The notes beneath the pieces are model-generated. The model was given only the letters and a program-made list of their open reading frames with translations. It searched no databases and was not told where the DNA came from. A DNA stretch of 64,000 nt from positions 27,443 to 91,442 of the forward strand of contig NZ_JBLWWR010000009.1 in NCBI RefSeq assembly GCF_048267825.1. The letters are read 5' to 3'. Shown one piece after another: positions 7,634-50,416 of this stretch; position 1 is the stretch's first letter, and each line of letters begins with the position of its first letter. Origin of the DNA: Pseudidiomarina sp. Lineage in GTDB: Bacteria; Pseudomonadota; Gammaproteobacteria; Enterobacterales; Alteromonadaceae. The translations under genes were made by a program, and so were the position numbers.

Positions 7634-7636
7634 CCG

Positions 7637-8494: not shown

Positions 8495-8536
8495 GCTGCA
8501 GGCCCTATTCTCATGGGTTTCATTACTGAATCTTAT

Positions 8537-8587
8537 ATGAATATTAAATATATTTAAAATATTTATGAATGTATAAGTAATATTCAT
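8537..8587. promoter_or_regulatory. Perfect 10-bp inverted repeat ATGAATATTA / TAATATTCAT in the LysR-gcvT divergent region (candidate operator)
   Basis: The arms at 8537..8546 and 8578..8587 are exact reverse complements and sit in a very AT-rich block. A third half-site-like ATGAATGTA lies at 8565..8573. Confidence 0.35.
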
Positions 8588-8616
8588 TTGTTGCGGGGGC
8601 CTTAGAGTTCTATAAT
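8588..8616 (+). promoter_or_regulatory. Putative sigma70 promoter of gcvTHP
   Basis: TTGTTG (8588..8593), a 17-nt spacer, then TATAAT (8611..8616), about 75 nt upstream of the gcvT ATG. Confidence 0.4.
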
Positions 8617-8690
8617 TCGCCCTAATTTTTTGAATGCGCAAGCACTGTGAAAACTTCGGCGCATCGACACCAAAAAAGGACAACTAGCTC

Positions 8691-9773: not shown

Positions 9774-9816
9774 GCATTTATTACCTTTCTGAAGAACAGA
9801 AAATGAGGAACAGAAC

Positions 9817-10206
9817 ATGAGCAACATCCCAAAGGAACTTAAGTACGCATCAACGCACGAATGGGTGCGTAACGACGGCGACGGCATTTTTACTGTCGGC
9901 ATCACTGAGCACGCGCAAGATTTGTTAGGCGATATGGTGTTTGTTGAGTTGCCAGATGTTGGTGCCAATGTTGCTGCCGGTGATGATGTTGCCGTTGCAG
10001 AATCAGTAAAAGCAGCTTCTGACATTTATGCACCAATTGCTGGTGAAATTGTCGAAGTAAACGAAGACTTAGAAGACGCACCAGAAACAGTAAATAATGA
10101 CCCATTTGGTGACGGCTGGTTGTTCAAAATCAAAGCCGAAGACCCAACTGAAGTTGAAGGCTTGCTTGATGCCGAAGGTTATCAAGCAGTTATCGACGAA
10201 GAATAA
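9817..10206 (+). CDS. gcvH: Glycine cleavage system H protein
   Basis: 129 aa with the lipoyl-lysine motif [14 protein letters not shown]. Confidence 0.95.
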
Positions 10207-10226
10207 CAGCTCGTTTTGTTGCTAAG

Positions 10227-10256
10227 CCCCGGTCATTTGCACCGGGGTTTTGTGTT
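10227..10256 (+). terminator. Hairpin plus T-tract between gcvH and gcvP (possible partial terminator)
   Basis: CCCCGGT-cattgc-ACCGGGG followed by TTTTGTGTTT. Confidence 0.5.
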
Positions 10257-10300
10257 TCAAATGTCTTGTATCAACCCGAAAGCTAGGGGATCTGAAGTAA

Positions 10301-13186: not shown

Positions 13187-13203
13187 TTGGTTTTGATGTG
13201 ATG

Positions 13204-13236
13204 AAAAAGGCGAGCTTTTTAGCTCGCCTTTTTTGT
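13204..13236 (+). terminator. Rho-independent terminator of gcvP
   Basis: AAAAAGGCGAGC-ttttt-AGCTCGCCTTTTTTG. Confidence 0.8.
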
Positions 13237-13297
13237 GCGTGTCGGAAAATCTTCTTTTTGTAATTGTAAAAACGTATGGAGCGGGGCGTATTTCTAG

Positions 13298-13438
13298 TTT
13301 TTAGCCAATGCACTCAAATCTGATGCTGATGTTTTCATCTTAGCAAACAGGGAGAGTTGCATGGTGAGTAATAAAGGTATACTTTTAACTCGGAATCCGA
13401 ATTATTTCAGTGCGTCGCTCACGAATAAAAGAGGTTGA
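13298..13438 (+). pseudogene. Possible 5'-truncated BrnT-like (DUF497) toxin remnant
   Basis: This open frame ends in ..NKGILLTRNPNYFSASLTNKRG*. Its stop (13436..13438) sits in the typical toxin-stop/antitoxin-start junction upstream of the brnA-like ATG. The tail is only loosely reminiscent of the BrnT C-terminus (..RIISARKA..), so the evidence is weak. Confidence 0.25.
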
Positions 13439-13443
13439 GCTTT

Positions 13444-13695
13444 ATGAAAACCAAGAAATTTGAAGAAAAGTTCGATGCCAATAAAGAGGATATTATTGAC
13501 GATCTGGATCTGTCTACCGCACGGCGAGTAAATCAGGACTCTAAACGAATCAATGTCGATTTTCCGCTCTGGATTGTTGAGTCTCTAGATCAAGAGGCTG
13601 CCCGTATTGGTGTCACGCGACAATCGCTGATTAAAGTTTGGTTGGCAGAAAGGTTAAGTCTTGAGCAAAAAAATCAGCGCAGTGTGGATTGTTGA
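13444..13695 (+). CDS. BrnA-like antitoxin (CopG/RHH-type)
   Basis: 83 aa. KFEEKFDANKEDIIDDLDLSTARRVNQDSKRINVDFPLWIVESLDQEAARIGVTRQSLIKVWLAERL matches the BrnA pattern (..rvnvdfP.wml..ld.eA.r.GvsRqalIK.wl...l). Confidence 0.7.
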   Translation: MKTKKFEEKFDANKEDIIDDLDLSTARRVNQDSKRINVDFPLWIVESLDQEAARIGVTRQSLIKVWLAERLSLEQKNQRSVDC

Positions 13696-13840
13696 TAAGT
13701 ACTCAAATCTAAATTGTGGTCTTGGGGTAGCTGTTAAATCAATTCTGAGCTAGTACAAGTTAAGCTTGCAGTTTTCGCAACTATTCCAGTGAATTGCGAC
13801 TAGTTCGCCAAACATCAAGGAATCACTATTTTCACTTGCA

Positions 13841-13903
13841 TTTCATACTTTACTGGTGAAAGCTGATCATTGAAACCTAAATTTCTTTGAAAATATGGTG
13901 TTA
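13841..13903 (+). repeat. Upstream module Y, copy A (TTTCATA..GGTGAAAGCTGATCATTGAAAC..TGGTGTTA)
   Basis: Shares a near-identical ~35-nt core and a downstream TGGTGTTA box with 16093..16150. Confidence 0.7.
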
Positions 13904-13998
13904 CTCTAAGAGGAAGCTTACTAGAAAAAGCGTTTAGGAATGAGCCTACAATTGCCCCTCCCTGATAGACACTCCCAAGTTTGTTTAAGATAACTCTA

Positions 13999-14017
13999 TT
14001 GAACTAGTGGTGATTCA
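13999..14017 (+). repeat. Module X, copy 1 (TTGAACTAGTGGTGATTCA)
   Basis: 16 of 18 nt are identical to the corresponding part of X3 (24285..24308). It lies 86 nt upstream of the shosT-like ATG. Confidence 0.6.
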
Positions 14018-14103
14018 GTTACCCCCAAAGCATGTGAAATGGTTGCTGAACTTATATTTTACGTTTAACGTAACAAAACTTTTATGCAAAAGGATTTGTT
14101 GTA

Positions 14104-14669
14104 TGCCGTTTCAACAACCCAAAATATTTTGTTTTGATGAGTACCACCCTTATCGCATTGCAGGAGTACAAAACCTTAAATGTGATAGTAAATCCAAACT
14201 CATGATGGATTTCAAAGACCCGACTAATTGTAACCACGAAAAGGCAGTGAAATACTTTACTAAATCATTGATATTAAACCTTCAAACGTTAACATATCAA
14301 CGCCGACCGATTACGGCTCATGAATTTATCGTAACAGTCGTGCCATCTCACACTGCTGGTCGCATATCACCTGCGCTTTGTACTGTTGCTCGGAAAGTAT
14401 GCCAACACTTTCCACTTTGGTCATTCTCACAGATATTGACAAGGCATGTTACGGTGCCAAGCTCCCACAAAGACGGAGGGAAAAGAAGCATAGCGACCCA
14501 CCTGAATAGTATTAATGTGGTTTCTCCTATAGATGTTCATGGGAAGCGCGTATTAATTTTAGATGACGTAAAAACCACAGGAAGTACAATTACCGCATGC
14601 CATAATCTAATTCAAGACGCAAAGGCAGTACTCATAGTACCCGTCGCTTTAATGGAAACAACATACTAG
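14104..14669 (+). CDS. shosT: Phosphoribosyltransferase-domain protein, ShosT-like toxin
   Basis: Has the PRPP-binding loop KRVLILDDVKTTGSTITA near the C-terminus. The ATG at 14104 has the RBS AAGGA 8 nt upstream. The gene is followed 2 nt later by a DprA-like gene. Confidence 0.7.
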
Positions 14670-14671
14670 TT

Positions 14672-15634
14672 ATGAATCAGAATGGATTGTTAAATATAGT
14701 AGCCCTAGGCACCGCGATGCAGACATACAAGCTGTGTAGTGAAGCGATGCTACTTCGATTATTCCGACTTGCCGGAGTCGGCGACTTTGAAGATCGAGCG
14801 GCAATAGTAGATAGGTTAAATGGGTTAAAATTTTTAAATGAAAAAATTTATATGGAAATTTTCGATAAAGGGTTCGAATTAGTGCGTAAGCATACGCTTG
14901 ATTCTATTGATATTATTTCGATTTTTGATCCAAGATACCCGAGCTCGCTGCTAATTACGTCACGCCCTCCGGCTTTATTGTATGTAAAAGGGAACTCGAA
15001 TTTACTTGGTGAAAGTCCGGGCGTTGCTGTTGTTGGTTCAAGGGAAGTATCTAGTGCGGGTGCTGAGATTACTAGGCGGATAGTGAGCCGCCTTGTAAAA
15101 GAGGATTATTGTATAGTCAGCGGTTTAGCAATAGGCGTCGACTGTGCAGCGCATCGCGCTGCTATATCGGCAAAGGGGAAGACTATTGCTGTTCTTGCTC
15201 ATGGGCTGGAGGAAGCAAAACCAAAGCAAAATTCACGCCTTGGGGAAGAAATCCTTGATTCAGGTGGCGCTTGGGTGTCCGAATTTCCAATTGGCAGAGC
15301 GCCAAGCAAACCAACATTTGTACAAAGAAATCGAATTCAAGTGGGGTTGTCTGCTGGATCCGTAATTGTTGAAGCTGCGCTAAATAGTGGCAGTATGACT
15401 CAAGCTGAATTCTGTAACCAAGAAAAGAGACCTTTGTTTTGTGTCGTTCCAGAAGACGCGACTAATAGATTAAATTTGAATTGCGAAGGTACGCAAAGTT
15501 TAGTCAACAAGAATGCTGCACATCCTTTAAGAACAAAAGAAGATTACGAGCATTTAGTTTGCACCTTGAATAAAGGGCGGGAAGTGATTGCCAATCATGT
15601 ACATGATTACTCGAACGTTAAAAGTTTTCTGTAA
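14672..15634 (+). CDS. shosA: DprA/Smf-like (SLOG Rossmann) protein, ShosA-like antitoxin
   Basis: GVAVVGSREVSSAGAEITRRIV...IVSGLAIGVDCAAHRAAISAKGKTIAVLAHGLEE..P..N..L...GAWVSEFPIGRAPSKPTFVQRNRIQVGLS..VIVEAALNSGS is the DprA core. Confidence 0.75.
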   Translation: MNQNGLLNIVALGTAMQTYKLCSEAMLLRLFRLAGVGDFEDRAAIVDRLNGLKFLNEKIYMEIFDKGFELVRKHTLDSIDIISIFDPRYPSSLLITSRPPALLYVKGNSNLLGESPGVAVVGSREVSSAGAEITRRIVSRLVKEDYCIVSGLAIGVDCAAHRAAISAKGKTIAVLAHGLEEAKPKQNSRLGEEILDSGGAWVSEFPIGRAPSKPTFVQRNRIQVGLSAGSVIVEAALNSGSMTQAEFCNQEKRPLFCVVPEDATNRLNLNCEGTQSLVNKNAAHPLRTKEDYEHLVCTLNKGREVIANHVHDYSNVKSFL

Positions 15635-16040
15635 CACTACCAATCTGTAAAATAGAGTTACTTGGTCTGGTTCAAGATATCTATTAGCTCAAACCTTATC
15701 TGGCAGTCATCTTTTTTCTGGTCACGATATTTCTAGCCTTGTTATACTTAACGCCTGCGGGCTAGAAGCGAATCGACACGGTTTTAGCGTTCGAACGGAG
15801 AACGAAACTAGTCTCAAATCTAAGCCCGTCCGAAATTGCTCGAAGTAAACCTTTCGTTTCATAGTAAGACAAACCGTTCAGTAAAAGCTGGGGAATCCAT
15901 TTATTCCTCGTTTGGCCGTTTTAGGTGGCACTGGTTGTCTAACTCTCTAAATCTATCGATTGCAGAAATGTAGCTGTCTATATAAGCATCTGACTGCCCC
16001 AGCTTATTGAGAAAATTAGCTATAGGGTGAGTTTCTATTA

Positions 16041-16064
16041 TTGAATCGCCATTAGTTCACTAGA
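16041..16064 (-). repeat. Module X, copy 2 (inverted orientation)
   Basis: The reverse complement TCTAGTGAACTAATGGCGATTCAA matches X3 TCTAGTGAGCTAGTGGCGATTCAA at 22 of 24 positions. Confidence 0.7.
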
Positions 16065-16092
16065 CACTCAGCATCCGCTTTCTTAAATTTAT

Positions 16093-16150
16093 TTTCATAA
16101 CCTACTAGGTGAAAGCTGATCATTAAAACTGTGTTATAAATGTGGTGTTA
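16093..16150 (+). repeat. Upstream module Y, copy B
   Basis: TTTCATAACCTACTAGGTGAAAGCTGATCATTAAAAC...TGTGGTGTTA, compared with copy A TTTCATACTTTACTGGTGAAAGCTGATCATTGAAAC...TATGGTGTTA. Confidence 0.7.
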
Positions 16151-16248
16151 TATCTTTAATGCACATTCAATATCTAAGAGATGCTTAGATACTGCAGTTG
16201 TGCTCTAACATGTTCTGCGTCAGTAATATAAACAGGGATACAGCAAAA

Positions 16249-17055
16249 ATGGGCAACGACATTGCACTTAATGACCTACTAAATCTCAGTAAGTTAGCAG
16301 ATATCAAGTTCCGCTTCATGACCCCGCACTATAGTGGCGACCCTCTCGATATTTTTAAGCGTGAACCAGATAAAATCGATGAATGGTTGCTTTGGAATTA
16401 TGCAAAGCTTCGCTCATTTAAGATCGGAGACACGGTATTTGGATTTATCCGTTTGCATGGTGATAAGTGGTTACTTGTTCGAGCTGTGCGAATTACTGAA
16501 GATTTGAATGCTTTTAACGGTGTCGGATATCAAGCTATCAATATTGGTGAATATCAAAAATATTTGGGGCGTGTGATTATTTCATATAAAAACCGTGCGC
16601 AAAAACTAATAAGAAACGCAGCGACGTTAATTGATGAATGCAAAGTAAGCCGCATATTGGAAAATGTCTACAGCAATGATGACTTTCCAGGTTATGACAA
16701 CGTTAGAATTTCATGGCAAGAGCTCAATCATGTCATTGACACTATTGCGTGGAAAACGGCATTGGAAAATCAACAGGCTGTATATCTGATAACGGATCGC
16801 TCCAACGGTAAAATGTATGTGGGTTCAGCAACCGGTGATCAGATGTTATATAACCGCTGGAAGGACTATATGAGCTCAGGACACGGCGGGAATGCCGATC
16901 TTAAAAAGCTGGCCTCTGAACACATAAAGAATAATTTTTACTTTTCGATATTAGATATTTACAAATCGAAAGTCAGTAAGGATGTTGTAATAAATCGTGA
17001 GCAGTGGTGGAAGAAGACACTGCGAACCAACATTTTTGGATATAACAAAAATTGA
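16249..17055 (+). CDS. GIY-YIG nuclease-domain protein with an uncharacterised ~170-aa N-terminal domain
   Basis: The C-terminus AVYLITDRSNGKMYVGSATGDQMLYNRWKDYMSSGHGGNADL...REQWWKKTL fits the GIY-YIG pattern (GxYxI..GKxYVGSA..RW..Y). The start is assigned to the ATG at 16249, which has AGGGA upstream. Confidence 0.7.
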   Translation: MGNDIALNDLLNLSKLADIKFRFMTPHYSGDPLDIFKREPDKIDEWLLWNYAKLRSFKIGDTVFGFIRLHGDKWLLVRAVRITEDLNAFNGVGYQAINIGEYQKYLGRVIISYKNRAQKLIRNAATLIDECKVSRILENVYSNDDFPGYDNVRISWQELNHVIDTIAWKTALENQQAVYLITDRSNGKMYVGSATGDQMLYNRWKDYMSSGHGGNADLKKLASEHIKNNFYFSILDIYKSKVSKDVVINREQWWKKTLRTNIFGYNKN

Positions 17056-17299
17056 TTAAGTAATCTTTCGTTTCCACATAGTCTATTACAATTGAATCGA
17101 TAATAGACCGAACTAAAAGTTCGCTCTACGTTTGAACTAAATCCCATGTGTCAGTCACTTTTGGAGTTTTTTCCGTCAGCTTGGATGTGGATTTTGAATG
17201 AGAAACGGACGTTCGCCGAGCTTGAAAACTTTGTGATAATCTGAAGTCATGTTAAAACTATGTAACGATTATTTGATATATGTTTAAGGGACTAACGAT

Positions 17300-18388
17300 A
17301 TGAAGCATGCTTTTCTAATGACAACGTCGCCGAGCTTTGATGGATATGAAGTTGAAAAATATTTAGGCGTCGTCACCAGTAACGTTGTGACCGGGACGGG
17401 GATATTTTCAGATATTGCAGCTTCGTTCTCTGATTTTTTCGGAGGTCGATCTATTGCATATAAGAAGCAGCTTGAATCTATCCGCGAAGAAGCAATTAAT
17501 GAACTAGAAAATAAAGCTCGAGCACTCGGCGCGAATGCCGTCGTAGGACTATCCGTAGACAATGACCAAATCTCTGGTAAGAATACACAAATGCTAATGA
17601 TTACGGTGACAGCAACGGCAGTAGTATTAAAACAAGCTGATATTTCAGGAATTGGAAGTCAGCTGTCTGATGTTGTCACCACTCTGCTTAGCTCTGAAGA
17701 TGTTAAGCAGAGAGTTCGATTAAAAGAGTTGCAATCGGCAGATGAAGAACTCTCGTTGGAGCAATTATTTAAAGCATACAAAGATGTTTTTGCATTATTG
17801 CCAAAGCTTGACGTCGCTAGATTACTAGTAAAACGCTTTTTACGCTCCAAGTACGAGATGGATTCTAGTGACCAAGGAAGAAATCAAATGCTCTCCTATC
17901 TGATGCTGTTTTCAGCAGATGAATTGCAGAGCTTGATTTATGAGGAAATTCAAAATTTAGAAAATCCTCTAAGTTCACTTAGCTATCTTGGTGTGCTAGC
18001 GCAACATTTCGACATTTACGACGATGAGCACATCTCAAAACTACTTCAAATGAACAATGACGAGTTGGCAATTGCGGGATTAGTTGCGTGCTTTTCAAAA
18101 CAACCATATTACGAAGCCCAGGACATTTTTAGAATCAGGGCGATGCTAAAAAATATTGAGAATCGATTTCCAATTAAACGCGAGATTACTGATAAGAAGA
18201 AATCTCTTGGTCGTGTTGCGCGAGTATGGGTATGTGCAAACGGGCATGAAAATGACGAGGAACGCAAGATTTGTCTTCATTGTCAGTTGTCGCTTCGTGA
18301 TGTACCAAAATATCTATTTGAAGACACAGTCACCAAATTAAAATTACGGGCTGAATCTCTTGAAATTGCGTTCTCAGACACGAATTGA
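17300..18388 (+). CDS. YbjQ/UPF0145-domain protein fused to a ~250-aa helical region and a C-terminal zinc-ribbon
   Basis: Residues 1-110 align along their whole length with E. coli YbjQ (..YLGVVTSNVVTGTGIFSD....FFGGRS.AY...L...REEAI.EL...A.ALGANAVVGL..D......). The C-terminus has WVCANGHEN..ERKICLHCQ. Confidence 0.7.
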   Translation: MKHAFLMTTSPSFDGYEVEKYLGVVTSNVVTGTGIFSDIAASFSDFFGGRSIAYKKQLESIREEAINELENKARALGANAVVGLSVDNDQISGKNTQMLMITVTATAVVLKQADISGIGSQLSDVVTTLLSSEDVKQRVRLKELQSADEELSLEQLFKAYKDVFALLPKLDVARLLVKRFLRSKYEMDSSDQGRNQMLSYLMLFSADELQSLIYEEIQNLENPLSSLSYLGVLAQHFDIYDDEHISKLLQMNNDELAIAGLVACFSKQPYYEAQDIFRIRAMLKNIENRFPIKREITDKKKSLGRVARVWVCANGHENDEERKICLHCQLSLRDVPKYLFEDTVTKLKLRAESLEIAFSDTN

Positions 18389-18582
18389 TTGATGAGTGTG
18401 AGTTCAAGTCGAATTTCCTTTAGAGTGCGATTTATGGTGGTTGAAGTTCGGCTGTATATAGGTATCACAGGTAAAATGCATATAGAAAGCTAGCTCCACT
18501 GACCACTAAAAAATATTTAAGCAGTCCTAGAAAGTAAAATTTTTTTGAGCGAAGAGCTAATAGGCAAAAGGGAGTTCCATAG

Positions 18583-19659
18583 ATGGGGTTTTACATTCGG
18601 AAAGCTATTAGCGTCGGACCTTTCAGGTTCAACTTATCAAAATCGAGTGTGGGCGTATCAGCAGGAGTTAAAGGTCTTCGTTTCGGGACTGGGCCTCGGG
18701 GCAATTACGTCCACATGGGAAGGGGTGGTCTATATTATAGAAGAACTTTACCCTCCGGTTCGACCGAAATAAATCAGCAATCGCATACGCCTACATTACA
18801 GCAAAGCGATACCGAAATTGAACATGATCCATTAAAGGAAATAGAAAGTGCTCATATCACGCAAATGGTAGATTCATCTTCGGCTGCTCTTGTTGCGGAA
18901 ATGAATGACAAAATAAAAAAAATCAGGATATGGCCTTTTATCGGCACAATTGGAACTTTTTTAACGTTTGTCGCCTTCCAAAATTCAGAAACTCCAATCG
19001 TTGCATTCATCATAGCTGTCATTACTATCGCTCTCACTATTTTTGCATCGGTCAAGGATAGCTTAAGAAAAACAACTGTTCTATTTTTCGAGCTTGAACC
19101 AGAAATCGAAGCGCTTTACCAGAAGCTTCACGATTCTTTCGGTCAGCTTTCATCATCATCGAGCAAATGGCATGTCGAAGCAGAGGGCTCTGTCAAAGAC
19201 AGAAAGCGTAATGCGGGCGCCACGAGCGTAATCAAAAGAACTTCAATATCTCTGGGCTTAGGAAATCCACCGTATGTGAAATCCAATGTTTCAGTTCCAT
19301 TTATCCCCGTCGGAAAGCAAACGCTGTATTTTTTCCCGGATAAGGTTCTTATATTTGAACCAAATGGTGTTGGTGCTGTGAGCTATCAAAATCTTAGAGT
19401 ATTTGTGGAAAATACGAGATTCATCGAACATGGCAGTTTACCAAGAGATGCAAAGGTTGTTGATAGAACCTGGAAGTACGTCAATAAACGGGGCGGTCCA
19501 GATAAACGATTTAAAGACAACCTAGAACTACCAATAGTCTTGTACGAAGACCTAAGCTTTACAAGTGACACAGGATTAAATGAACGAATTGAAATATCAA
19601 AGGTAGGCTTTGGTGGTGACTTCTCACGCGCTATCAACATGTTGTCAAAAGGGATCTAA
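18583..19659 (+). CDS. DUF4236-domain membrane protein
   Basis: The N-terminus MGFYIRKAISVGPFRFNLSKSSVGVSAGVKGLRFGTGPRGNYVHMGRGGLYYR is the DUF4236 signature. Two hydrophobic helices follow (IWPFIGTIGTFLTFVAF, IVAFIIAVITIALTIFASV), then a ~200-aa C-terminal domain. Confidence 0.7.
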   Translation: MGFYIRKAISVGPFRFNLSKSSVGVSAGVKGLRFGTGPRGNYVHMGRGGLYYRRTLPSGSTEINQQSHTPTLQQSDTEIEHDPLKEIESAHITQMVDSSSAALVAEMNDKIKKIRIWPFIGTIGTFLTFVAFQNSETPIVAFIIAVITIALTIFASVKDSLRKTTVLFFELEPEIEALYQKLHDSFGQLSSSSSKWHVEAEGSVKDRKRNAGATSVIKRTSISLGLGNPPYVKSNVSVPFIPVGKQTLYFFPDKVLIFEPNGVGAVSYQNLRVFVENTRFIEHGSLPRDAKVVDRTWKYVNKRGGPDKRFKDNLELPIVLYEDLSFTSDTGLNERIEISKVGFGGDFSRAINMLSKGI

Positions 19660-19674
19660 CGACCGCAGCGAGAG

Positions 19675-19713
19675 ACCAGATAAGTAGTAACCAGGTAGCT
19701 AATTATCTGGTCA
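19675..19713. terminator. 10-bp perfect inverted repeat between convergent genes (possible bidirectional terminator)
   Basis: GACCAGATAA - 19 nt - TTATCTGGTC. The loop is long and there is no clear T-tract. Confidence 0.35.
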
Positions 19714-19762
19714 AATATCTGACCTGAAACGGCATTAAAGTTCTAGTTTTTGACAGGCGTTG

Positions 19763-20683
19763 CTAGTTTCGTCGCCGTCCCAGTTTTTTCGTATAATCAA
19801 AACTAAATGTATGCTCATTTGGGTTTACGGTACAAGCTCCATAAACCCGATTGTCTTTGTCGGCGCGTAGCACAATTGTACCACCGCAAACCGGACATTT
19901 TGCAGTCGCTGCAATTACATTTAATCTGGGAAGTCGTTCATCGTCTTGATGATGTAATACCAGAGCGGTAGGTGTGAGCCTGCCAGCTAGTAAGTCTGGC
20001 ATCAAGACTACTCGGCGTTCCGGTAATTCATAAAAGCGTCGCCAGTGTTTATAAAATTTGGCACTGACAATAATCAGCAAAGTTGTTAATAGCCAATTAT
20101 ATATACTGGGCTGGTACACGGCACTGTAAAGTGAACCTATTATCAATAGAATCATGAAGCCAGCAAAACCAAATAGTAATACGACCATCAGAATTGCTGG
20201 GATAAGACCAAGCTGCGCACCATACAGCCATCGCAGCCACATATTTAACTCACGGCGTGTTTCGAAAGTGTAGCGTATAGCTCCTTCAGGGATATCGTTC
20301 TTGGAGGGGGTAAAACGAAGATCTATATCTCGTGCTGAAAAAGTAAAAACAAGAACTCGATCACCTTTAGTGACTTGACCTGTTGGATAAACTTTAAAAT
20401 TATTGTCCACCGCCGATTCTGCCAATACATCCGCACGTTCCGACAACCACTCTCCCAGCTCTTTGAATTTTTTCCGAACTTGACTACCTGATTCGCTCTC
20501 GTGTTCCGACTCTAATATGTCTTTAATCACAAAACTCGTTTTAGCGCCTGCTGCTGCGATGACCTGTTCGCATATTTGCTGAAATAACCGGTGAATCCTT
20601 GTGCGATTACCGGCAACCTTTTGTTGCTCCTCAAGCCACTTCAACCCAACCCTAGCGGCTAACACATTGTCTTGATTACTCAC
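19763..20683 (-). CDS. Hypothetical 2-TM protein with C-terminal zinc-ribbon
   Basis: 306 aa with a GTG start preceded by GGGAG. It has two long hydrophobic helices (LGLIPAILMVVLLFGFAGFMILLIIGSL, WLLTTLLIIVSAKF) and the C-terminal motif CPVCGGTIVL......GAC. No family was recognised. Confidence 0.6.
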   Translation of the reverse strand: MSNQDNVLAARVGLKWLEEQQKVAGNRTRIHRLFQQICEQVIAAAGAKTSFVIKDILESEHESESGSQVRKKFKELGEWLSERADVLAESAVDNNFKVYPTGQVTKGDRVLVFTFSARDIDLRFTPSKNDIPEGAIRYTFETRRELNMWLRWLYGAQLGLIPAILMVVLLFGFAGFMILLIIGSLYSAVYQPSIYNWLLTTLLIIVSAKFYKHWRRFYELPERRVVLMPDLLAGRLTPTALVLHHQDDERLPRLNVIAATAKCPVCGGTIVLRADKDNRVYGACTVNPNEHTFSFDYTKKLGRRRN

Positions 20684-20690
20684 TTTGTGT

Positions 20691-20720
20691 GACTCCCTAT
20701 GACTCCCTTCGACACCCTAC
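20691..20720. repeat. Three tandem 10-bp repeats (GACTCCCTAT GACTCCCTTC GACACCCTAC) in a divergent intergenic region
   Basis: Read directly from the sequence. The repeats lie 8-37 nt upstream of the GTG of the minus-strand gene. Confidence 0.8.
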
Positions 20721-20777
20721 TGCCTCCTGACAGCGTAAGTCAATATGCCTCGAGATTAGGAACAAGAGGAACATGAC

Positions 20778-21452
20778 GTGGAAGCATTTGCGACTGATAT
20801 CGAGACAGGTCGAACCATACACATCAGTAACGCCTTAAATAGTAAGAATTATATTTGTAAAGTGTGCGGTACTCAGTTATTTCCCATAATGGGTACTGTT
20901 AAAAAGCGGCACTTTCGACACAAATCACTAAAAAAACATCAGCACCGTATCAATGGTGAGACAAGGTTGCACCGAGAAGCTAAGCGGATCCTTGAATTCT
21001 TCAAACTAGTCGAGCTTCCTGATCAGCTTGGTCCTGCAGAACTGGAGTATGTTCAACTAGAAAAGAGTCATATACGTGGACCTCACGTGATCCGTCCGGA
21101 TGTTACTGCGCGTGTTGGCAGTCAGGAAATATTTATAGAAATTAAGGTCACTCATGCCGTATCTGAGTATAAGCGCGAGCGGCTCCTCGCATTCAACATT
21201 GATACCATTGAAATTGATCTATCGATGTATGTTGGGCGCACCACACTTAGCGCGCACGACCTGCAAATGGCGGTAATTTTTGATGCTCGGCGCACATTTG
21301 TGCATAGGCGCGGAATTCACCTATTCCCGCGTTTGATTAGTCGCTGGTATCACTTCTGGAATAAGTTGCGGGGTCTACTGAAACGTCGTCGACCGATGAA
21401 AATTCATGATCGAGACCCGGATAGCGGACAGAGTTATTGGAATTTTGGGTAG
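20778..21452 (+). CDS. CoiA-like / PD-(D/E)xK nuclease family protein
   Basis: Has the N-terminal zinc motif YICKVCGTQL......RHFRHKS, then GETRLHREAK, then RPDVTARVGSQEIFIEIKVTHAVS (D..ExK). This layout is typical of competence-protein-CoiA-like nucleases. The start is GTG. Confidence 0.55.
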   Translation: MEAFATDIETGRTIHISNALNSKNYICKVCGTQLFPIMGTVKKRHFRHKSLKKHQHRINGETRLHREAKRILEFFKLVELPDQLGPAELEYVQLEKSHIRGPHVIRPDVTARVGSQEIFIEIKVTHAVSEYKRERLLAFNIDTIEIDLSMYVGRTTLSAHDLQMAVIFDARRTFVHRRGIHLFPRLISRWYHFWNKLRGLLKRRRPMKIHDRDPDSGQSYWNFG

Positions 21453-21631
21453 CTTTGTAGTCGCTAAGTATTTGAAGTTTAGACATTATGGTCGGCCTTG
21501 AGTGAAAAGCAGACATTTATCAATGAGTCTGGTAGTTTATCTAAAAGATATGGAATAGCTAAGGTCATTAGCTAAAAAGCCCTCTTTGACTGTAAACAAG
21601 TATTGGTAGGCCCGAATTTCAAGGAACGATT

Positions 21632-23608
21632 ATGAGCAAAAAAATTCAAGTAGAGGTCCAGAGCGATCATCTAGACAAGGTATCAAAATCGAGTCCATTA
21701 ACTGCTGTCACTGAGCTCGTTTGGAATGCCTTGGACGCAGATGCAAATACCGTTGAAGTTATTGTTGACAGTGGTGATATGGGTATATCTGCAATTCACG
21801 TCAAAGATGATGGGCATGGAGTGGATTACGATAAGGCTTCTGCATATTTCAAAGGCTTGGGAGGCTCTTGGAAAAATGATAAAGGTCAGTCTCCAAATGG
21901 AAGATTTCTTCATGGAAGAGAAGGGCAGGGGCGTTTTAAGTCATTTTCTGTTGGCAGAGTTGTAGAGTGGACCACAAGGTATCAGTCTCATGACAGCCAG
22001 TATTTCGAATATCAAATAAAAGGTTTTTCCGACGATAAAAAAAGCTTTTCGTTAAGTGATAAGAAAACAAGTGAAGTTGCAAAATCAGGTACGAGAGTGT
22101 CTATTTTAGAGCCAATTAAAGAATTTACTTCGTTGACCGATGGAAGACTAATTGAACACCTCACCTCTACCTTTGCTACCTATTTGGCTGCATATAAAGA
22201 AGTCAAGCTATATGTTAATGGGAAACGAGTTGATCCAAGCTCAGTTATAAACAACTCCGAAACTGTTGAACTTTCCAAAGTTTTATACGAAGGAAGGGTG
22301 TATGACTATGAACTGGAGATTATTGAGTGGAATACCACAGCGAAAAATCAAATTCAGTTGTGTAATCATGCGGGATTCCCATTGCTTCCGTTGGATAAAA
22401 AAATTAAAGGGAGTGCTGAGTTTTCTTTCACTGCATATTTGAAATCTGAGCACATAAGTGAACTGAATAGAGTTGGTGCACTCGGTTTAGGGGATTTAGA
22501 AAGATCTTTACGGGCTCCTATTGATGACGCAGTAAACCGAATTAAAGATTACCTAGTTAGAAGAAAAATAACTCGCTCTTCTAACCAAATAGAAAAATGG
22601 AAAAGTGAGAACGTTTATCCGTATTCGGGTGAAGTTATAGGGCATGTTGAGCGTGCTGAAAAACAAATGTTTGATTTCCTTGCACTCAATATCAACGATC
22701 TTATGCCTGAGTTTGATAAATCTGCTCTGCAATTGAAAAAGTTTCAACTAAGCCTGTTGAAGCAAATTGTCGCGAGCCAGCCGAGTGACCTCCATACCAT
22801 ATTGACAGAGGTATTGAGCTTAAGCGAAGAAAAGCAGAAAGAATTTGCAGAGTTGCTTAAGGACGCGTCTTTATCTGCAATTATCAGCGCTACCAAGATG
22901 GTGGCTGATAGGTTGCGTTTTCTCTCTGGGTTGGAGGAAATTATATTCAACCCAAACCTTAAAAAGGTACTGAAAGAGCGTAGCCAACTTCACAAACTCC
23001 TCGAAGAAAACACATGGGTATTTGGTGAACAATTTTCATTGTCAGTTAGTGACAAATCACTGACAAAAGTGCTAAGTAAGCATCTAGAAAGCAAAGGGAT
23101 CGCTATTCTTCCAGATGAACCTGTAAAGCGTTTGGATGAATCCAATGGTATTGTAGACTTGATGCTAACTCGGAGTATTGCGCGCAACCATCCAACTGAA
23201 CGTGAGCACCTTATTGTTGAGTTAAAGGCACCTAAAGTGAAAATTGGTCAAGCCGAGCTCGGGCAAATAAAGTCTTATGCTTTTGCGGTCTCGGATGATG
23301 AGCGGTTTACTGCATTGGATACTAAGTGGCACTTTTGGATCATATCGAATGAAATCGACGCCTATACTAAACGAGAATTAGCAGACGATAAACAAGAACG
23401 CGGTATTTTATACAATGCTGATGGAGTTACGATTTGGGTGAAAACATGGTCAGAACTAATCAATGAGTGTAAACACAGACACGAGTTTATCCGTAAACAA
23501 CTGGATATAAACGTCGATAGTTCAGACGGATTGGAGTATCTCCGAAAACACTACTCTGCCTACACCCAAGGATTAGATGAATTTGATGAGAAGTCTATTG
23601 CAGTATGA
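21632..23608 (+). CDS. GHKL (HATPase_c_3-type) ATPase fused to a C-terminal DUF4263/Shedu-like PD-(D/E)xK nuclease domain
   Basis: The N-terminus carries the Bergerat-fold boxes TELVWNALDADA (N box), VKDDGHGV (G1) and GREGQGRFKSF (G2). The C-terminus LLEENTWVFGEQF...GIVDLMLTR...EHLIVELKAPKVKIGQAELGQIKSYA fits the DUF4263 pattern (pWlfG..y...D....ElK.P......Q...Y). Confidence 0.65.
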   Translation: MSKKIQVEVQSDHLDKVSKSSPLTAVTELVWNALDADANTVEVIVDSGDMGISAIHVKDDGHGVDYDKASAYFKGLGGSWKNDKGQSPNGRFLHGREGQGRFKSFSVGRVVEWTTRYQSHDSQYFEYQIKGFSDDKKSFSLSDKKTSEVAKSGTRVSILEPIKEFTSLTDGRLIEHLTSTFATYLAAYKEVKLYVNGKRVDPSSVINNSETVELSKVLYEGRVYDYELEIIEWNTTAKNQIQLCNHAGFPLLPLDKKIKGSAEFSFTAYLKSEHISELNRVGALGLGDLERSLRAPIDDAVNRIKDYLVRRKITRSSNQIEKWKSENVYPYSGEVIGHVERAEKQMFDFLALNINDLMPEFDKSALQLKKFQLSLLKQIVASQPSDLHTILTEVLSLSEEKQKEFAELLKDASLSAIISATKMVADRLRFLSGLEEIIFNPNLKKVLKERSQLHKLLEENTWVFGEQFSLSVSDKSLTKVLSKHLESKGIAILPDEPVKRLDESNGIVDLMLTRSIARNHPTEREHLIVELKAPKVKIGQAELGQIKSYAFAVSDDERFTALDTKWHFWIISNEIDAYTKRELADDKQERGILYNADGVTIWVKTWSELINECKHRHEFIRKQLDINVDSSDGLEYLRKHYSAYTQGLDEFDEKSIAV

Positions 23609-23698
23609 CGCAGCCCAATGGCTGAAAATCTAACGAATCGCTGCTGTTGGACAAATTTTCACAAAGCGCGGGGTTATGCATAAATCGGGAATTGCCAA

Positions 23699-24121
23699 AT
23701 GACGTTTGAAAAAGATTGGATTGATGTTACCTCGGCACTATTAACTCCAGTAGTAGCTGTATTAGGTATAGGGATTGCCGTACTGCAATGGAAACTAAAT
23801 AGATCAAGATTTAGACACGAAGTATTTGAGAAACGATATGCAATTTATGAAGCCGCATTGCTTTATTTAAGCCAACTTATCAGAACAGCAAAGATGGATG
23901 ATTACGAGCGGGTTACCTTCTTGCAGAATACCAAAGGAGCGTTCGTCTTGTTTGACGAAAAAATTGTTACTTATCTGAAGGAACTACATTCAAAATCTTT
24001 AGAATTACACTTGTACCATAGTCAAAAACGTCACAAAGAAGAAGCTGAGGTACTGAAGTGGTTAACTGCTCAGCTTAATGAAATTGATGTGGTCTTCAAA
24101 GGTCATCTCAAGATCGAGTAA
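23699..24121 (+). CDS. Hypothetical single-TM protein
   Basis: 140 aa with the N-terminal helix ALLTPVVAVLGIGIAVLQW. It lies 90 nt downstream of the GHKL-nuclease gene on the same strand. Confidence 0.5.
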   Translation: MTFEKDWIDVTSALLTPVVAVLGIGIAVLQWKLNRSRFRHEVFEKRYAIYEAALLYLSQLIRTAKMDDYERVTFLQNTKGAFVLFDEKIVTYLKELHSKSLELHLYHSQKRHKEEAEVLKWLTAQLNEIDVVFKGHLKIE

Positions 24122-24284
24122 ATGTATAACAATCATATTAAAAATCGCTCCACTTCGTTGCGCGGGATCTAACTATCTGTCGGCCTTTTATGTGAGTGTT
24201 ATGGTAAGGCCTGATAATATTATTTAATACACTTAAAGGGCTTGGCGATGGAGATAATCTCGATAGAAATGACGTAACCAACGT

Positions 24285-24308
24285 TCTAGTGAGCTAGTGG
24301 CGATTCAA
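24285..24308 (+). repeat. Module X, copy 3 (TCTAGTGAGCTAGTGGCGATTCAA)
   Basis: See copies 1 and 2. This copy lies 67 nt upstream of the ATG at 24376. Confidence 0.7.
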
Positions 24309-24375
24309 AGTGGGTACTCGCATATACAAATGTTTTACCAACAGAACCTGAGCTAATCGGAGGGAATCAGGAAAA

Positions 24376-24768
24376 ATGCATTCAATTCTAATCTACGGAT
24401 TTCCCATTATACTTGTTTCATTTGAGGCTTTGCTAAGAAATTTAATAGACGTCGATACCTTCGGGTTCGTTGGGCCTACTTTGGCAGCAACAGGAATTTC
24501 ATTTATGGTTCCCCTTACAAGGCTGAAAGTTTCTGAGGTTAAGTCATCGCTTGGTGAAAAATGGGTTCAGGTTTCAAAGCGGGACCAGAATTATGTAAGT
24601 TTAGTATGGTTACTGCTTTTCATCTCTTTGTTCTTGTGGTTTTGGGTTTGCACACTTTCGATTCAAAGCGATACTTCCAAGTTATTTGATTTTCCAACAC
24701 ATGTGGTTATTGGTGCAACAATGTATGTGATTGGTATTGTTTTAAGCAGTATCAAGGAGGTGATGTGA
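24376..24768 (+). CDS. Hypothetical ~4-TM membrane protein
   Basis: 130 aa and strongly hydrophobic. An RBS GGAGGGA lies upstream. The stop overlaps the next start (ATGA at 24765). Confidence 0.6.
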   Translation: MHSILIYGFPIILVSFEALLRNLIDVDTFGFVGPTLAATGISFMVPLTRLKVSEVKSSLGEKWVQVSKRDQNYVSLVWLLLFISLFLWFWVCTLSIQSDTSKLFDFPTHVVIGATMYVIGIVLSSIKEVM

Positions 24769-25355
24769 TGGCTTTTGAACTAGTTGCAATCTTGATAAGT
24801 GCAGTGGCATCTGCTGTCGCTTTTTTGTCAGCCAGAATGATTAAGCGCCTCGATTCTAAGTTTAATAAAACTATTTTCTTAAAAAATAGCAGCGGCGAAG
24901 TTAAAGAAATTTCCATAGAAGCAGGCGATAATGAAAGAAATATCCAAGAATACCTTGATTCTGCAATTGAATATGAAAATGAAGTTGGAGAAATACTGAA
25001 ACGATACCGTTCTCAGTTAATACATAATTATATTGCTGAGTTTAATAATCGTAAGTACCAGATAGATTATTTTCTGAGTGATTATGATAAGAGCTATTTC
25101 TTTGAAGTTAAGTCTCATAAAAAACCGCTGAGCGCTAGTTTAGTGTCCAAGATAATTGAAGATCTTCCATACAATTCCGATGGAAATGTAATAGTCTCAA
25201 AGAATGGTTTCACTGAGAGTGCTTTGGAATTAATCAAAAAAGCAAATAAAAAAATCATGCCAGTAAGTGGTGCTAGTCGTGAAGAGTTAACATCACAGCT
25301 TGATGAGTTCGCGGCAAGCAAGGGTATAACAAGTCAAGCAAGTGGGACGTCCTAG
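24765..25355 (+). CDS. Membrane-anchored Mrr_cat-type restriction-endonuclease-domain protein
   Basis: The N-terminal TM helix is FELVAILISAVASAVAFLSA. The C-terminus YQIDYFLSD..KSYFFEVKSHKKPLSASLVSKII......GNVIVSKNGFTESALELIKKAN fits the Mrr_cat pattern (D...ExK...v....v..l......g.ivt..gFt..A...a). Confidence 0.6.
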   Translation: MMAFELVAILISAVASAVAFLSARMIKRLDSKFNKTIFLKNSSGEVKEISIEAGDNERNIQEYLDSAIEYENEVGEILKRYRSQLIHNYIAEFNNRKYQIDYFLSDYDKSYFFEVKSHKKPLSASLVSKIIEDLPYNSDGNVIVSKNGFTESALELIKKANKKIMPVSGASREELTSQLDEFAASKGITSQASGTS

Positions 25356-25505
25356 TGCCCCCTTTGTTGAAGTGTTAGTATTTAAGGGAAATATGAGCGA
25401 GAATTCTTTCAAATCAATAAGAAATGGAATTATTGCTTCAGTAATTTCCGGAGTGATTCTCTTGGATTTTCCGGTTCTGAGAGGATATCTAATTAGCTTT
25501 TTGTC

Positions 25506-25910
25506 ATGGCATGGTCTGGATTTGTGTGGTGTTGGGAAGTTCTAGTTGCTTCATATTATCTTCCGGGCTGGGGTTGGTTGTTACTCCTTATTCTGGCATG
25601 TGTTGGTTTGGTTAATATTTATCGGGCTCTAAAAGGTGAGTCGGAAGAACCTGAATTTAAATCATACATTGAAGATTTCATTCATGGTGCCAAATGGCGA
25701 TGGGTTTGGGTGGAAAATCGAATTTCCAAGGTATGGTGCTTTTGTCCTCGTTGCGATGCAACGCTGGTTGATGATGACAGCTCATGCCGTAGCCTTTATG
25801 CGGGCGTAAATAAAACTGACTTTATTTGTGAAAACTGTGGTCGTAGTACTGTGGCATCTATAGCAGGTGGAAGCAAAGGTTATGCAATTGGCGCAATACG
25901 GGCGAGATAG
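25506..25910 (+). CDS. Hypothetical membrane protein with zinc-ribbon (possibly the 3' part of a frameshifted 25393..25910 gene)
   Basis: Has the TM helix YYLPGWGWLLLLILACVGLVNIY, then CFCPRCDATL....FICENCG. The upstream ORF (MSENSFKS.. from 25393) joins this frame if one copy of the tandem CATGGCATGG (25505..25514) is removed. Confidence 0.5.
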   Translation: MAWSGFVWCWEVLVASYYLPGWGWLLLLILACVGLVNIYRALKGESEEPEFKSYIEDFIHGAKWRWVWVENRISKVWCFCPRCDATLVDDDSSCRSLYAGVNKTDFICENCGRSTVASIAGGSKGYAIGAIRAR

Positions 25911-26114
25911 AGCGAAGAATAAGGACCGGTGAGTACAGAAAGGACGAACAAGTCATTTCTGCTGGAAAAGTTTTCCGCTGTACTCCAAATTTGCCGCAGA
26001 GCGCATCGGCAACGTCCGCATCTGGCACAATGCGAAAGTTAGGACCACGGAGTCTACCAATGTCACCGCTGCTTCTTCAGCGAGTTAACATCTAGCTAAA
26101 AACAGCCAAAAAAC

Positions 26115-27038
26115 CTACTGCATCCCCTTCAAAAACGCCACGACACTGCGCCCCAGCGAGCTATGGTCATAGCCACCTTCTAGCATCGCAACAATACGCC
26201 CTTCGCAATGTCGTTCAGCAAGCGCTTTCAGTTCCTGAGCTATCCAATGGTAGTCGGTTTCGGTTAGATTGAACTGCGCCATGTCGTCTTCCATATGTCC
26301 GTCGAAGCCCGCTGAAACCATAATCAGTTGCGGTTCAAAGGCATCAAGGGCGGGGAACCAGCGTTCGCGCACAGCGGCTTGCCAGGTGGGGCCATCACAG
26401 CCTGCGGGTAATGGAATATTGATCACCTCATGGCTAATGGTTTCCGTACCCGAATTCGGATACAAAGGGTGTTGAAACGAGCTGCAAAACAATACCCGCT
26501 CGTCGTTTAAAAAGATGTCTTCAGTGCCGTTACCGTGGTGCACATCGAAATCCACAATCGCCACGCGCTCAAGGCCATATTTATGCATGGCGTATGCGGT
26601 GGCCACCGCTACGTTATTGAAAATGCAAAACCCCATAGCGGCATCCCACGTGGCGTGGTGGCCGGGTGGCCGAACTGAGCAAAACGCGCGGCGGTTCTCG
26701 GCGGTAAACACTTCGTCGACCGCGCAGATGCCGCTGCCAGCAGCGTACAACGCAGCGCGCAGTGTGCCAGCTGTCATCATGGTGTCGGGGTCTAGCCAAA
26801 TGTGCTGATCGGGTTCGGTTGGTGCGCGATCAAACACGTCGTCTACGTAATTGGCGGCGTGCACGCGGAGTAAGTCTTCACGGTCGGCTGGCTCGGCATC
26901 TTTCTGGGTTAGCGCAAACTCCATGCCAGAGCGAATAATCTGATCATTAATGGCTGCAATACGTGCCGGCTCTTCTGGGTGTACTTCTGAAACGCGATGC
27001 AAACTGCAATATTGGTGACTAAATACGGTTATCGACAT
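26115..27038 (-). CDS. Histone deacetylase-family (class II HDAC / acetylpolyamine amidohydrolase-like) protein
   Basis: Contains the zinc-deacetylase motifs RPPGHHA, DFDVHHGNGTEDIF and GFDGH. Confidence 0.85.
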   Translation of the reverse strand: MSITVFSHQYCSLHRVSEVHPEEPARIAAINDQIIRSGMEFALTQKDAEPADREDLLRVHAANYVDDVFDRAPTEPDQHIWLDPDTMMTAGTLRAALYAAGSGICAVDEVFTAENRRAFCSVRPPGHHATWDAAMGFCIFNNVAVATAYAMHKYGLERVAIVDFDVHHGNGTEDIFLNDERVLFCSSFQHPLYPNSGTETISHEVINIPLPAGCDGPTWQAAVRERWFPALDAFEPQLIMVSAGFDGHMEDDMAQFNLTETDYHWIAQELKALAERHCEGRIVAMLEGGYDHSSLGRSVVAFLKGMQ

Positions 27039-49682: not shown

Positions 49683-49852
49683 TTAGCGTAATCGGTTCTT
49701 AAATAAGTTGACGTAAGAGCAAGCACAAGTTAAATGTGAATTAAAAATTTAGGGGGCGTTGTGACGTATTCAATTAGTTCTGTTTGGATTTTCGCTTTTT
49801 GTTGTCGCTTTTGTGCTCCCAATTTATATAGGGAAATACAGTTGAGTGCGGT

Positions 49853-50236: not shown

Positions 50237-50274
50237 AATATTCTGTACGGTTTTATTTCAATATTCTTTACCAA

Positions 50275-50313: not shown

Positions 50314-50416
50314 AGTTGTTAGATGTTTACTATAAATAGGCTCGTTTGCGCCTGTTTTGGCGCAAATCTGGTACGGCTTTAATTTAAACCTTTAGCACAA
50401 AACGTGGTTCGTTAAA

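Follow-up and report, generated by a model that had tools for sequence, protein, structure and literature searches.

The window examined here is a stretch of 64,000 nucleotides from Pseudidiomarina sp. (contig NZ_JBLWWR010000009.1), in which a 12.9-kb AT-rich region, at 13.24-26.11 kb and hereafter called the island, lies directly on the 3' side of the gcvT-gcvH-gcvP genes. NCBI gives the same organism name to a 100% identical protein. The island is genuine and belongs to a well-known type of defence locus, with three systems that have already been described, and it also contains two rare conserved gene pairs, hereafter abbreviated as pair A (19763-21452) and pair B (24376-25355), which are reasonable candidates for new systems. 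Unless the minus strand is indicated, the genes presented below lie on the plus strand. The left core flank and anchor of the hotspot is gcvP (10301-13186; Pfam GDC-P, 1.4e-199), and the left edge of the island is set by the gcvP terminator (13209-13233), a hairpin with T-run (ggcgagc-ttttta-gctcgcc-tttttt) that appears as a self-inverted match. The right edge coincides with the stop, at 26115, of a convergent gene of the histone deacetylase family (HDAC; 26115-27038, minus strand; Pfam Hist_deacetyl, 6.9e-86), which forms the right core flank. A previous sequence-only reading of this DNA had reported a change to AT-richer composition from the gcvP terminator to about 26.1 kb, and this change is real and sharp: the GC content is 0.378-0.440 in all 13 of the 1-kb intervals between 13001 and 26000, 0.459-0.559 in 12 such intervals on the left (at least 0.474 in 11 of them) and 0.455-0.545 in those on the right (26001-49000). 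The GC content at third codon positions (GC3) is 0.305-0.427 for every open reading frame (ORF) of the island and 0.521-0.592 for the flanking genes gcvT, gcvP, HDAC (0.581), acetyl-CoA hydrolase/GNAT and Nramp-like, gcvH being the sole flanking gene with a low value (0.385).

The same reading had counted about 15 ORFs in the island, none of them housekeeping, in agreement with all our scans, and had seen no integrase, transposase, tRNA or flanking repeat. On the latter point family scans, tRNA scan and repeat comparison concur: Pfam, NCBIfam, PHROGs and PADLOC (2.0.0 models, used for all defence-family scans) assign no ORF of the island to an integrase or transposase family, the repeat comparison detected no direct repeat flanking the island, and the sole tRNA of the window is tRNA-Phe at 54095. 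The features expected of islands formed by site-specific recombination, namely an integrase, a tRNA or att target and flanking direct repeats, are therefore not found here. Nothing was found in an Rfam scan of the island, and a scan for promoters and terminators showed no enrichment with respect to shuffled sequences.

Pair A is formed by ORF7 and ORF8. The product of ORF7 (19763-20683, minus strand) has 306 amino acids (aa) and combines a cytoplasmic N-terminal domain, a transmembrane (TM) segment at residues 152-191 and a C-terminal zinc ribbon of the CxxC...C...H type; it shows a conserved LPE(R/H)RV motif and invariant C263, C266, C284 and H291, with no family match in Pfam, PADLOC, NCBIfam or PHROGs. 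The product of ORF8 (20778-21452) combines a CoiA-like zinc finger with a PD-(D/E)xK nuclease domain, in which C27/C30/H45/H48 and D108/E121/K123 are invariant. The CoiA-like nuclease perceived earlier in this gene is weak when ORF8 is taken by itself, with 20.5 bits for CoiA_N (3.3e-4) versus the Pfam cut-off of 26.3 and no match to CoiA_nuc (PF06054), but is supported by the invariance of D108/E121/K123 and by distant paired homologues that score 31.3-32.6 bits for CoiA_N, above the cut-off; the Sphingomonas partner reaches 19.9 bits for CoiA_nuc versus a cut-off of 20.3 (8.6e-4).

A word-index search with ORF8 returned three clusters only, and in each of its contexts the 306-aa gene is found in divergent orientation at about 95 bp on the upstream side, the shared divergent promoter region of 95 bp suggesting co-regulation. 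In two loci (L096 and L097) pair A is 92% and 86% identical at the aa level and lies between the Mokosh genes MkoA/MkoB and a type I restriction-modification (R-M) system with AbiEi, while in a relative (L098) it is 78% and 67% identical and is found at the gcvP hotspot, near Drt5 and SduA genes. Distant versions, with 26-33% aa identity and the divergent arrangement retained, occur on plasmids of Acinetobacter, Psychrobacter and Sphingomonas; that of the Acinetobacter plasmid adjoins McrBC, and that of Psychrobacter plasmid pA18P2 (15.6 kb) lies beside replication genes. Overall, pair A occurs on at least six replicons, and five of the six contexts adjoin validated defence or restriction systems (Mokosh, type I R-M, McrBC, DRT5 and Shedu). 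Judging from these contexts, pair A is a truly conserved unit, and the earlier delimitation of a module at 19763-21452 holds well. Scans of viral and metagenome contigs with the ORF7 alignment returned nothing, and no homologue of ORF8 was found in phages. Other CoiA-like plasmid genes were considered as possible versions of pair A and rejected, being long fusions of 460-700 aa or having unrelated neighbours; these genes, and a Treponema pair, have no ORF7-like partner. A CoiA-domain gene with anti-phage activity has been obtained from a functional screen in E. coli (Vassallo et al. 2022, PMC9519451). ORF8 resembles this gene in its CoiA-like nuclease domain, but it matches no PD-T4, PD-T7 or PD-Lambda model of PADLOC and is instead always paired divergently with the familyless TM/zinc-ribbon protein.

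Pair B begins with ORF11 (24376-24768), which encodes a protein of 130 aa with about four TM segments, and continues with ORF12 (24768-25355), the product of which is 195 aa long when counted from the second Met and presents an N-terminal TM helix (residues 1-27) followed by a Mrr_cat-like PD-(D/E)xK domain. In Aeromonas, in Alcanivorax and in this window, ORF11 always overlaps the start of ORF12 (TGATG or TAATG). The ORF11 protein remains 80-85% identical in all comparisons (Aeromonas and Alcanivorax), while ORF12 falls to 51-53% identity in Alcanivorax. Homologues of ORF12 form just 14 clusters among 5.8 billion proteins; a metagenome scan recovered one TARA locus only, and none was found on plasmids. 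As for the Mrr_cat-like nuclease proposed before, the match is weak in ORF12 itself (E 0.005; 17.3 bits versus the Pfam cut-off of 21), but E71/D101/E114/K116 are invariant in the 14 homologues, six of which have a precomputed match to PF04471 (Mrr_cat). ORF12 has the E...D...ExK core of Mrr, and several homologues show weak Mrr_cat matches, but it differs from Mrr in that no N-terminal winged helix (Mrr_N) or other DNA-binding domain is detected; instead, this protein of only 195 aa has a TM anchor and an obligatory partner with four TM segments. From these comparisons, pair B is a conserved unit, and a very rare one.

The module that had been drawn from 24376 to 25910 is conserved in its first two genes but not in the other two, ORF13 and ORF14, which we have rejected as parts of pair B since they are not conserved with it in other loci. 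ORF14 (25506-25910) encodes a stand-alone protein of 134 aa with TM and zinc ribbon, a 59% identical homologue of which is found alone on plasmid pAFAEC of Aliarcobacter faecis, beside genes for DUF262 and DUF2971 proteins and a Tn3 transposase. ORF13 (25342-25545; 67 aa) is doubtful; it overlaps ORF14 by 40 nt in a different frame, and only ORF14 has a homologue elsewhere. It is possible that ORF13 is spurious or that a frameshift accounts for both.

The left part of the island contains two of the systems described previously. The pair of genes for a phosphoribosyltransferase (PRTase) and a DprA-like protein at 14007-15634 is identified by its profile matches as a Shosta (ShosTA) system, which was reportedly presented by Millman et al. 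in 2022. The PRTase toxin gene, shosT (14007-14669), matches PADLOC ShosT over residues 46-216 (1.7e-18) and weakly Pfam Pribosyltran (1.3e-4), and shosA (14672-15634), immediately downstream after a gap of 2 nt, encodes the DprA-like partner (PADLOC ShosA, 5.4e-73; Pfam DNA_processg_A, 1.9e-61). Gene order and domains are the same as in Shosta, with strong PADLOC matches; the ShosT match is only moderate and its start codon uncertain, and otherwise nothing notable differs. The gene at 16198-17055 is assigned in the same way to uzuA of the Uzume system, which likewise consists of a single GIY-YIG gene: residues 22-285 of its product match positions 3-278 of the 278 in the PADLOC UzuA profile (3.7e-52), with the GIY-YIG nuclease domain at the C-terminus (Pfam, 2.9e-7). 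Both the PRTase/DprA pair and the GIY-YIG nuclease had been recognized correctly from the letters of the sequence.

The same applies to an antitoxin gene at the left end of the island, brnA (13435-13695; probable start at ATG 13444), an orphan of type II that matches NCBIfam BrnA_antitoxin_add at 7.8e-34 (115.7 bits versus a cut-off of 60). No intact brnT was found upstream of it, where the only ORF has 25 aa. The frame-2 translation (13239-13439) has stop codons upstream in frame and ends just 5' of brnA with the peptide IRIISVRRSRIKEVE, which we take to resemble the C-terminus of BrnT. BrnA is thus clearly present but, unlike in an intact BrnTA module, the toxin gene is a pseudogene stump, a 3' remnant of about 30 codons with stops (13340-13437); therefore the module is not functional here as a toxin-antitoxin, and the left edge of the island cuts through, and truncates, an older BrnTA module. 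The non-coding spacer of 564 bp between shosA and uzuA (15635-16197) contains ORFs of 46 aa at most, gives no match to Rfam and carries an 88-nt repeat (16042-16129) that is 72% identical, with a 22-nt core at 95%, to the sequence at 13790-13876; the two copies lie upstream of uzuA and shosT, respectively. A 24-nt piece of this repeat is present in inverted orientation at 24285-24308, upstream of ORF11. The repeat may be a shared promoter/operator or the scar of a miniature inverted-repeat transposable element.

The third described system is represented by ORF9 (21632-23608), the 658-aa product of which combines an N-terminal GHKL ATPase (HATPase_c_3, 1.5e-17), an S5-like middle domain and a C-terminal PD-ExK/QxxxY nuclease. 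Its family is large, with 2905 cluster representatives when E<=1e-3 is required and 763 when the threshold is E<=1e-30, almost all of them 640-700 aa long. In an alignment of 47 sequences, all of which match HATPase_c_3, the residues of the Bergerat ATP site (E28, N32, D35, D59, G61, G95 and G100) are invariant, as is the nuclease signature formed by D509, E530-x-K532 and Q545-xxx-Y549. The AlphaFold model built on this alignment has a mean pLDDT (predicted local distance difference test) of 87.4. Foldseek relates its N-terminal two-thirds to the N and M domains of Hsp90/TRAP1, the 40-kDa fragment of MutL and the ATPase module of MORC2 (E 1e-12 to 1e-10), in alignments spanning 320-450 columns, the whole-chain search being dominated by the GHKL part.

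This architecture corresponds to that of paraMORC3, defined as GHKL and S5 domains followed by a RecB-family E-D-ExK nuclease at the C-terminus and encoded in proteobacteria by a stand-alone gene (Iyer et al. 2008, PMC2292703). ORF9 has the GHKL motifs, the S5-fold middle domain and the C-terminal RecB-family E-D-ExK, and stands alone, with no conserved partner in phage or window contexts. Shedu variants with a GHKL N-terminus were subsequently listed (Gu et al. 2023), and the literature places the GHKL-nuclease architecture in Shedu type I-D (Gu et al. 2023; Adams et al. 2025, PMC12137116). One such protein, VcSduA, defends against T1-like phages, for which ATP hydrolysis and the nuclease lysine are required, E27 and this lysine being both needed (Adams et al. 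2025, PMC12137116). ORF9 shares with VcSduA and paraMORC3 the stand-alone length of about 660 aa, the N-terminal GHKL domain with intact motifs, the S5-like middle domain and the C-terminal E-D-ExK. The agreement with VcSduA is one of architecture and of a single position only, the motif I Glu, which is E27 in that protein and lies at position 28 in ORF9. From its sequence, ORF9 fits the paraMORC3 / GHKL-Shedu class, which was validated as VcSduA in 2025.

The C-terminal part of ORF9 had been read as a DUF4263-like domain. It is indeed a PD-ExK nuclease with QxxxY, but the specific connection with DUF4263 is only partly supported: SduA_C (DUF4263) is matched by one of the 47 relatives (E 1.3e-3), and not by ORF9 itself, versus 20 of the 47 for HSDR_N_2. 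The nuclease of ORF9 thus scores in Pfam as HSDR_N_2/RecB-like (QxxxY) and not as the DUF4263 of Shedu, and PADLOC SduA gives no match for ORF9. Comparison with a bona fide SduA by hhalign gives a probability of 0.5%, and a profile search of the PDB retrieved no Shedu chain. It is because the C-terminal domain could not be linked to DUF4263/SduA_C by sequence that we have filed ORF9 under the paraMORC3 / GHKL-Shedu class. A full-length homologue of ORF9, 36% identical, is found in Pasteurella phage Pmp14 (positions 5001-6959 of locus L100), within a run of hypothetical genes flanked by those for tail assembly and the one for the tape measure, a position typical of a phage-borne defence moron. 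A scan of viral contigs with the single ORF9 protein found nothing. We also considered ORF9 and the following ORF10 as a pair and rejected it, as no gene resembling ORF10 adjoins ORF9 in its phage version, and the homologues of ORF10 are carried by small plasmids from which ORF9 is absent.

The DUF4236 protein, the YbjQ fusion and the small TM proteins of the island are, on present comparisons, unlinked single genes. ORF5 (17300-18388) encodes a YbjQ domain (YbjQ_1, 1.4e-29, residues 6-109) with a C-terminal extension of 250 aa ending in a zinc ribbon, and is considered a stand-alone accessory; its full-length homologues (31-32% identical) were found on Salinibacter plasmids only, without a DUF4236 neighbour. 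ORF6 (18583-19659), also stand-alone, encodes a DUF4236 domain (1e-13; phrog_17982, 2.8e-42) followed by a TM segment and a beta-rich C-terminal domain. The sequence-only reading had joined these two genes in one module (17300-19659), which we have discarded: homologues of each occur without the other, never together, and no YbjQ fusion is present in the DUF4236 contexts that we examined. Scans of viral contigs with ORF5 and ORF6 as single proteins found nothing. ORF6 has 2299 homologues with 53-88% identity across bacterial classes and phyla, from 70-88% in Gammaproteobacteria (Zobellella, Ectothiorhodospira and Idiomarina) and Campylobacterota (Aliarcobacter and Sulfurovum) to 62% in a metagenome-assembled genome of Phycisphaerales. 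Their neighbours vary and are often defence genes. The homologue of Chromohalobacter lies beside the candidate system PDC-M34, and that of A. butzleri (JBMGPF010000004.1, 1-14000; 74% identical) is part of the defence cargo of a Tn7-like element (TniB, TniQ ... TnsE_C), together with the PtuA/PtuB pair of Septu (PtuA, 1.3e-197); this cargo also includes a pair formed by a nucleoside 2-deoxyribosyltransferase-like gene and QueC. In I. piscisalsi the homologue is found among ordinary genes. The AlphaFold model of ORF6 (pLDDT 81.9) is confident for residues 80-358 and of low confidence for residues 1-78, which correspond to DUF4236; it shows a helical hairpin with the TM segment and then beta-rich domains, for which Foldseek gave no match below E 0.01 in PDB or BFVD, with a weak PH-like (pleckstrin homology) resemblance only. 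With more than 2000 homologues and a confident model without known fold, the DUF4236 protein is a further uncharacterized gene tied to defence islands. ORF10 (23699-24121), which had been proposed as a module of its own, encodes an orphan protein of 140 aa with N-terminal TM segment and has no evidence of a partner: no family match was found in Pfam, PADLOC, NCBIfam or PHROGs, a similar gene is absent next to the phage paraMORC3 homologue, and its only homologues (29-33% identical) are on small plasmids, one of 7 kb.

The position of the island can be compared with the 3' side of the gcv genes in other genomes. L098 has a gcvP that is 86% identical in aa and a syntenic LysR-gcvT-gcvH-gcvP region with 76% nucleotide identity over 5.4 kb; after gcvP it carries genes for YecR and DUF4238 proteins, pair A, Drt5 (5e-217), SduA (3e-161) and more genes until the end of the contig, pair A being all that it shares with the window at this site. 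On three near-identical contigs of Alcanivorax (L093-L095), the gcvPB terminator is followed after 250 bp by pair B and then by HEPN, SymE and DUF4062 genes. Within the region 7360-16600, L095 alone has a P2-Old-type nuclease (PADLOC Old, 3e-245) and L094 alone has two small genes; such differences indicate ongoing cargo turnover at the Alcanivorax site. Taken together, the L098 and Alcanivorax data imply that at least two orders have a variable defence locus on the 3' side of the gcv operon. The comparison of the gcvP-HDAC junction had been expected to reveal either different cargo or an empty site. Different cargo was found after gcvP in these genomes, but an empty site was not, because the adjacency of gcvP and HDAC is specific to this lineage: none of the 80 HDAC loci listed has gcvP within 10 kb, including that of Aliidiomarina, the best relative (HDAC 73% identical in aa), and an exact-protein look-up for HDAC gave no match. 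A metagenome scaffold of 59.9 kb (CAOS20-1 scaffold_519), on which gcvH is identical and the N-terminus of gcvP 99% identical, stops after about 1 kb of gcvP, which would fit an assembly break near strain-variable sequence.

Core defence hotspots (cDHS) flanked by conserved housekeeping genes have been described in P. aeruginosa (Johnson et al. 2023, PMC10250203). The present locus resembles hotspots of this type in being a variable AT-rich defence cluster between core genes, without integrase and with cargo that differs at the same anchor. It differs from them in the anchor itself, as we found no paper linking gcvP or gcvTHP to a hotspot, and in that only the gcv flank is shared with the other genomes seen, the adjacency to HDAC being lineage-specific. 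The data point to the 3' side of gcvTHP as a newly noted defence hotspot in Idiomarinaceae and Alcanivorax, a position that could be searched for systems throughout the marine Gammaproteobacteria, much like the hotspots of P. aeruginosa and E. coli.

We consider it very probable that the region at 13.24-26.11 kb is a recombinase-free chromosomal defence hotspot, composed as a mosaic of independently acquired cassettes and not as one element. The proposal of a defence hotspot, already advanced by the sequence-only reading, gains from the three recognized systems of the island and from the different defence cargo at the same position in L098 and Alcanivorax. That reading left Shosta, Uzume and the GHKL-nuclease class validated in 2025 unrecognized, so that the unexplored part of the island is smaller than it had claimed. 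Around ORF6 (18568-19660), pair A (19753-21459, to which its homology is confined) and pair B (24336-25364), the nucleotide homology with other hosts breaks off no more than 1-40 bp from where the ORFs end; because of this, and because no recombinase or attC-like repeat is present, turnover by recombination is probable. Cargo would be swapped when DNA recombines at the borders of genes and via the conserved gcv flank, without the action of a site-specific integrase, and each cassette would act on its own, Shosta, Uzume and the paraMORC3-class protein presumably in the manner of their described relatives.

An improbable alternative is that the whole region is what remains, after decay, of one integrative element (an island, satellite or prophage fragment) which has lost integrase and att sites and whose genes arrived together. 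The uniformly low GC of the island would suit such an origin, as would the brnT stump at the left edge, which shows deletion or decay, and the same genome does contain an AT-rich patch, at 49.8-54.1 kb, with the C-terminal remnant of an integrase beside tRNA-Phe. Yet no integrase fragment, att-like direct repeat or tRNA is found in or beside the region itself, the closest relatives of the cassettes are in different hosts and contexts with homology ending at gene boundaries, and L098 shares nothing but pair A at the site. Defence cassettes have been reported in sedentary chromosomal integrons, and the mostly co-oriented, small cassettes with homology boundaries hugging the ORFs might recall a cluster of attC sites lacking an integron integrase (CALIN), in which exchange would occur via attC. 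This possibility is extremely unlikely and was rejected: a repeat comparison, though not a dedicated attC model, detected no recurrent attC-like imperfect palindromes between the genes, the spacers, 91 to 564 bp long, have no element in common, the intergenic sequence that is shared amounts to the 88-nt repeat with 72% identity and the 24-nt inverted match, and one gene lies on the opposite strand.

Of the four unassigned modules that had been put forward as the best candidates for new systems, that at 19763-21452 holds as a conserved pair, two were wrongly delimited and that at 23699-24121 has no evidence of a partner. Pairs A and B emerge as two compact and sharply delimited candidates, of 1.7 kb and 1.0 kb, in which gene order is conserved and the catalytic residues do not vary, and which are found repeatedly near validated systems. 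It is possible, and we suggest it tentatively, that at least one of the two pairs is an undescribed anti-phage or anti-plasmid system with a membrane-held PD-(D/E)xK nuclease acting on entering DNA, and that the region 3' of gcvTHP is a recurrent recombinase-free hotspot across orders of marine Gammaproteobacteria. In both pairs the nuclease-fold protein would cut or sense invading DNA at the inner membrane, and the membrane partner would localize, gate or execute the response. For pair A, the zinc-finger/PD-(D/E)xK nuclease would be the effector, localized or licensed by the membrane zinc-ribbon protein, possibly at the site of DNA entry. For pair B, the 4-TM protein, which is translationally coupled to the membrane-anchored Mrr-like protein, would form a membrane complex with it; the fast-evolving nuclease-fold protein, as sensor or effector, would provide specificity, and its 4-TM partner, highly conserved, would be the constant part.

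Several points weigh against these interpretations. We infer the function of the candidate genes from association and motifs, and the recombination route for cargo exchange is purely inferred. The contexts of pair A come from six independent loci and those of pair B from three, both few, and the Aeromonas neighbours of pair B are unannotated except for a weak LmuA-like match; moreover, the nuclease domain of ORF9 could not be tied to DUF4263 by Pfam on its 47 relatives, by hhalign or by the PDB profile. The PADLOC check suggested earlier recognized Shosta and Uzume but returned no match for pair A, pair B or the single genes (the DUF4236 protein, the YbjQ fusion and the small TM proteins). This could mean that all these genes are hitch-hiking in variable regions as addiction or toxin-antitoxin-like, plasmid-exclusion or stress modules, with no anti-phage role, an explanation that we regard as rather unlikely. 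Shosta and BrnTA themselves are said to have been described originally as toxin-antitoxin systems, by Sberro et al. in 2013. Pair-A-like genes lie next to replication genes on the small Psychrobacter plasmid, so that plasmid maintenance or exclusion would fit equally, ORF10-like genes are carried by a 7-kb plasmid, and the I. piscisalsi DUF4236 gene has ordinary neighbours. The association of pair A with defence or restriction systems in all but one of its six contexts argues for the opposite, as do the location of pair B in an Alcanivorax island of variable content that includes Old, HEPN and SymE genes, that of DUF4236 homologues next to Septu within Tn7 cargo and next to the candidate PDC-M34, and the invariance of the nuclease catalytic residues in ORF8 and ORF12.

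Outside the island, the second AT-rich patch of the window (49800-54170; GC 0.384-0.395) abuts tRNA-Phe (54095-54170, minus strand). The ORF at 53860-54159 is the C-terminal remnant of a tyrosine recombinase (…GGWASYEMVLRYAHL…), and the patch also holds several small ORFs for secreted or lipoprotein-like products; it looks like a decayed genomic island at tRNA-Phe.

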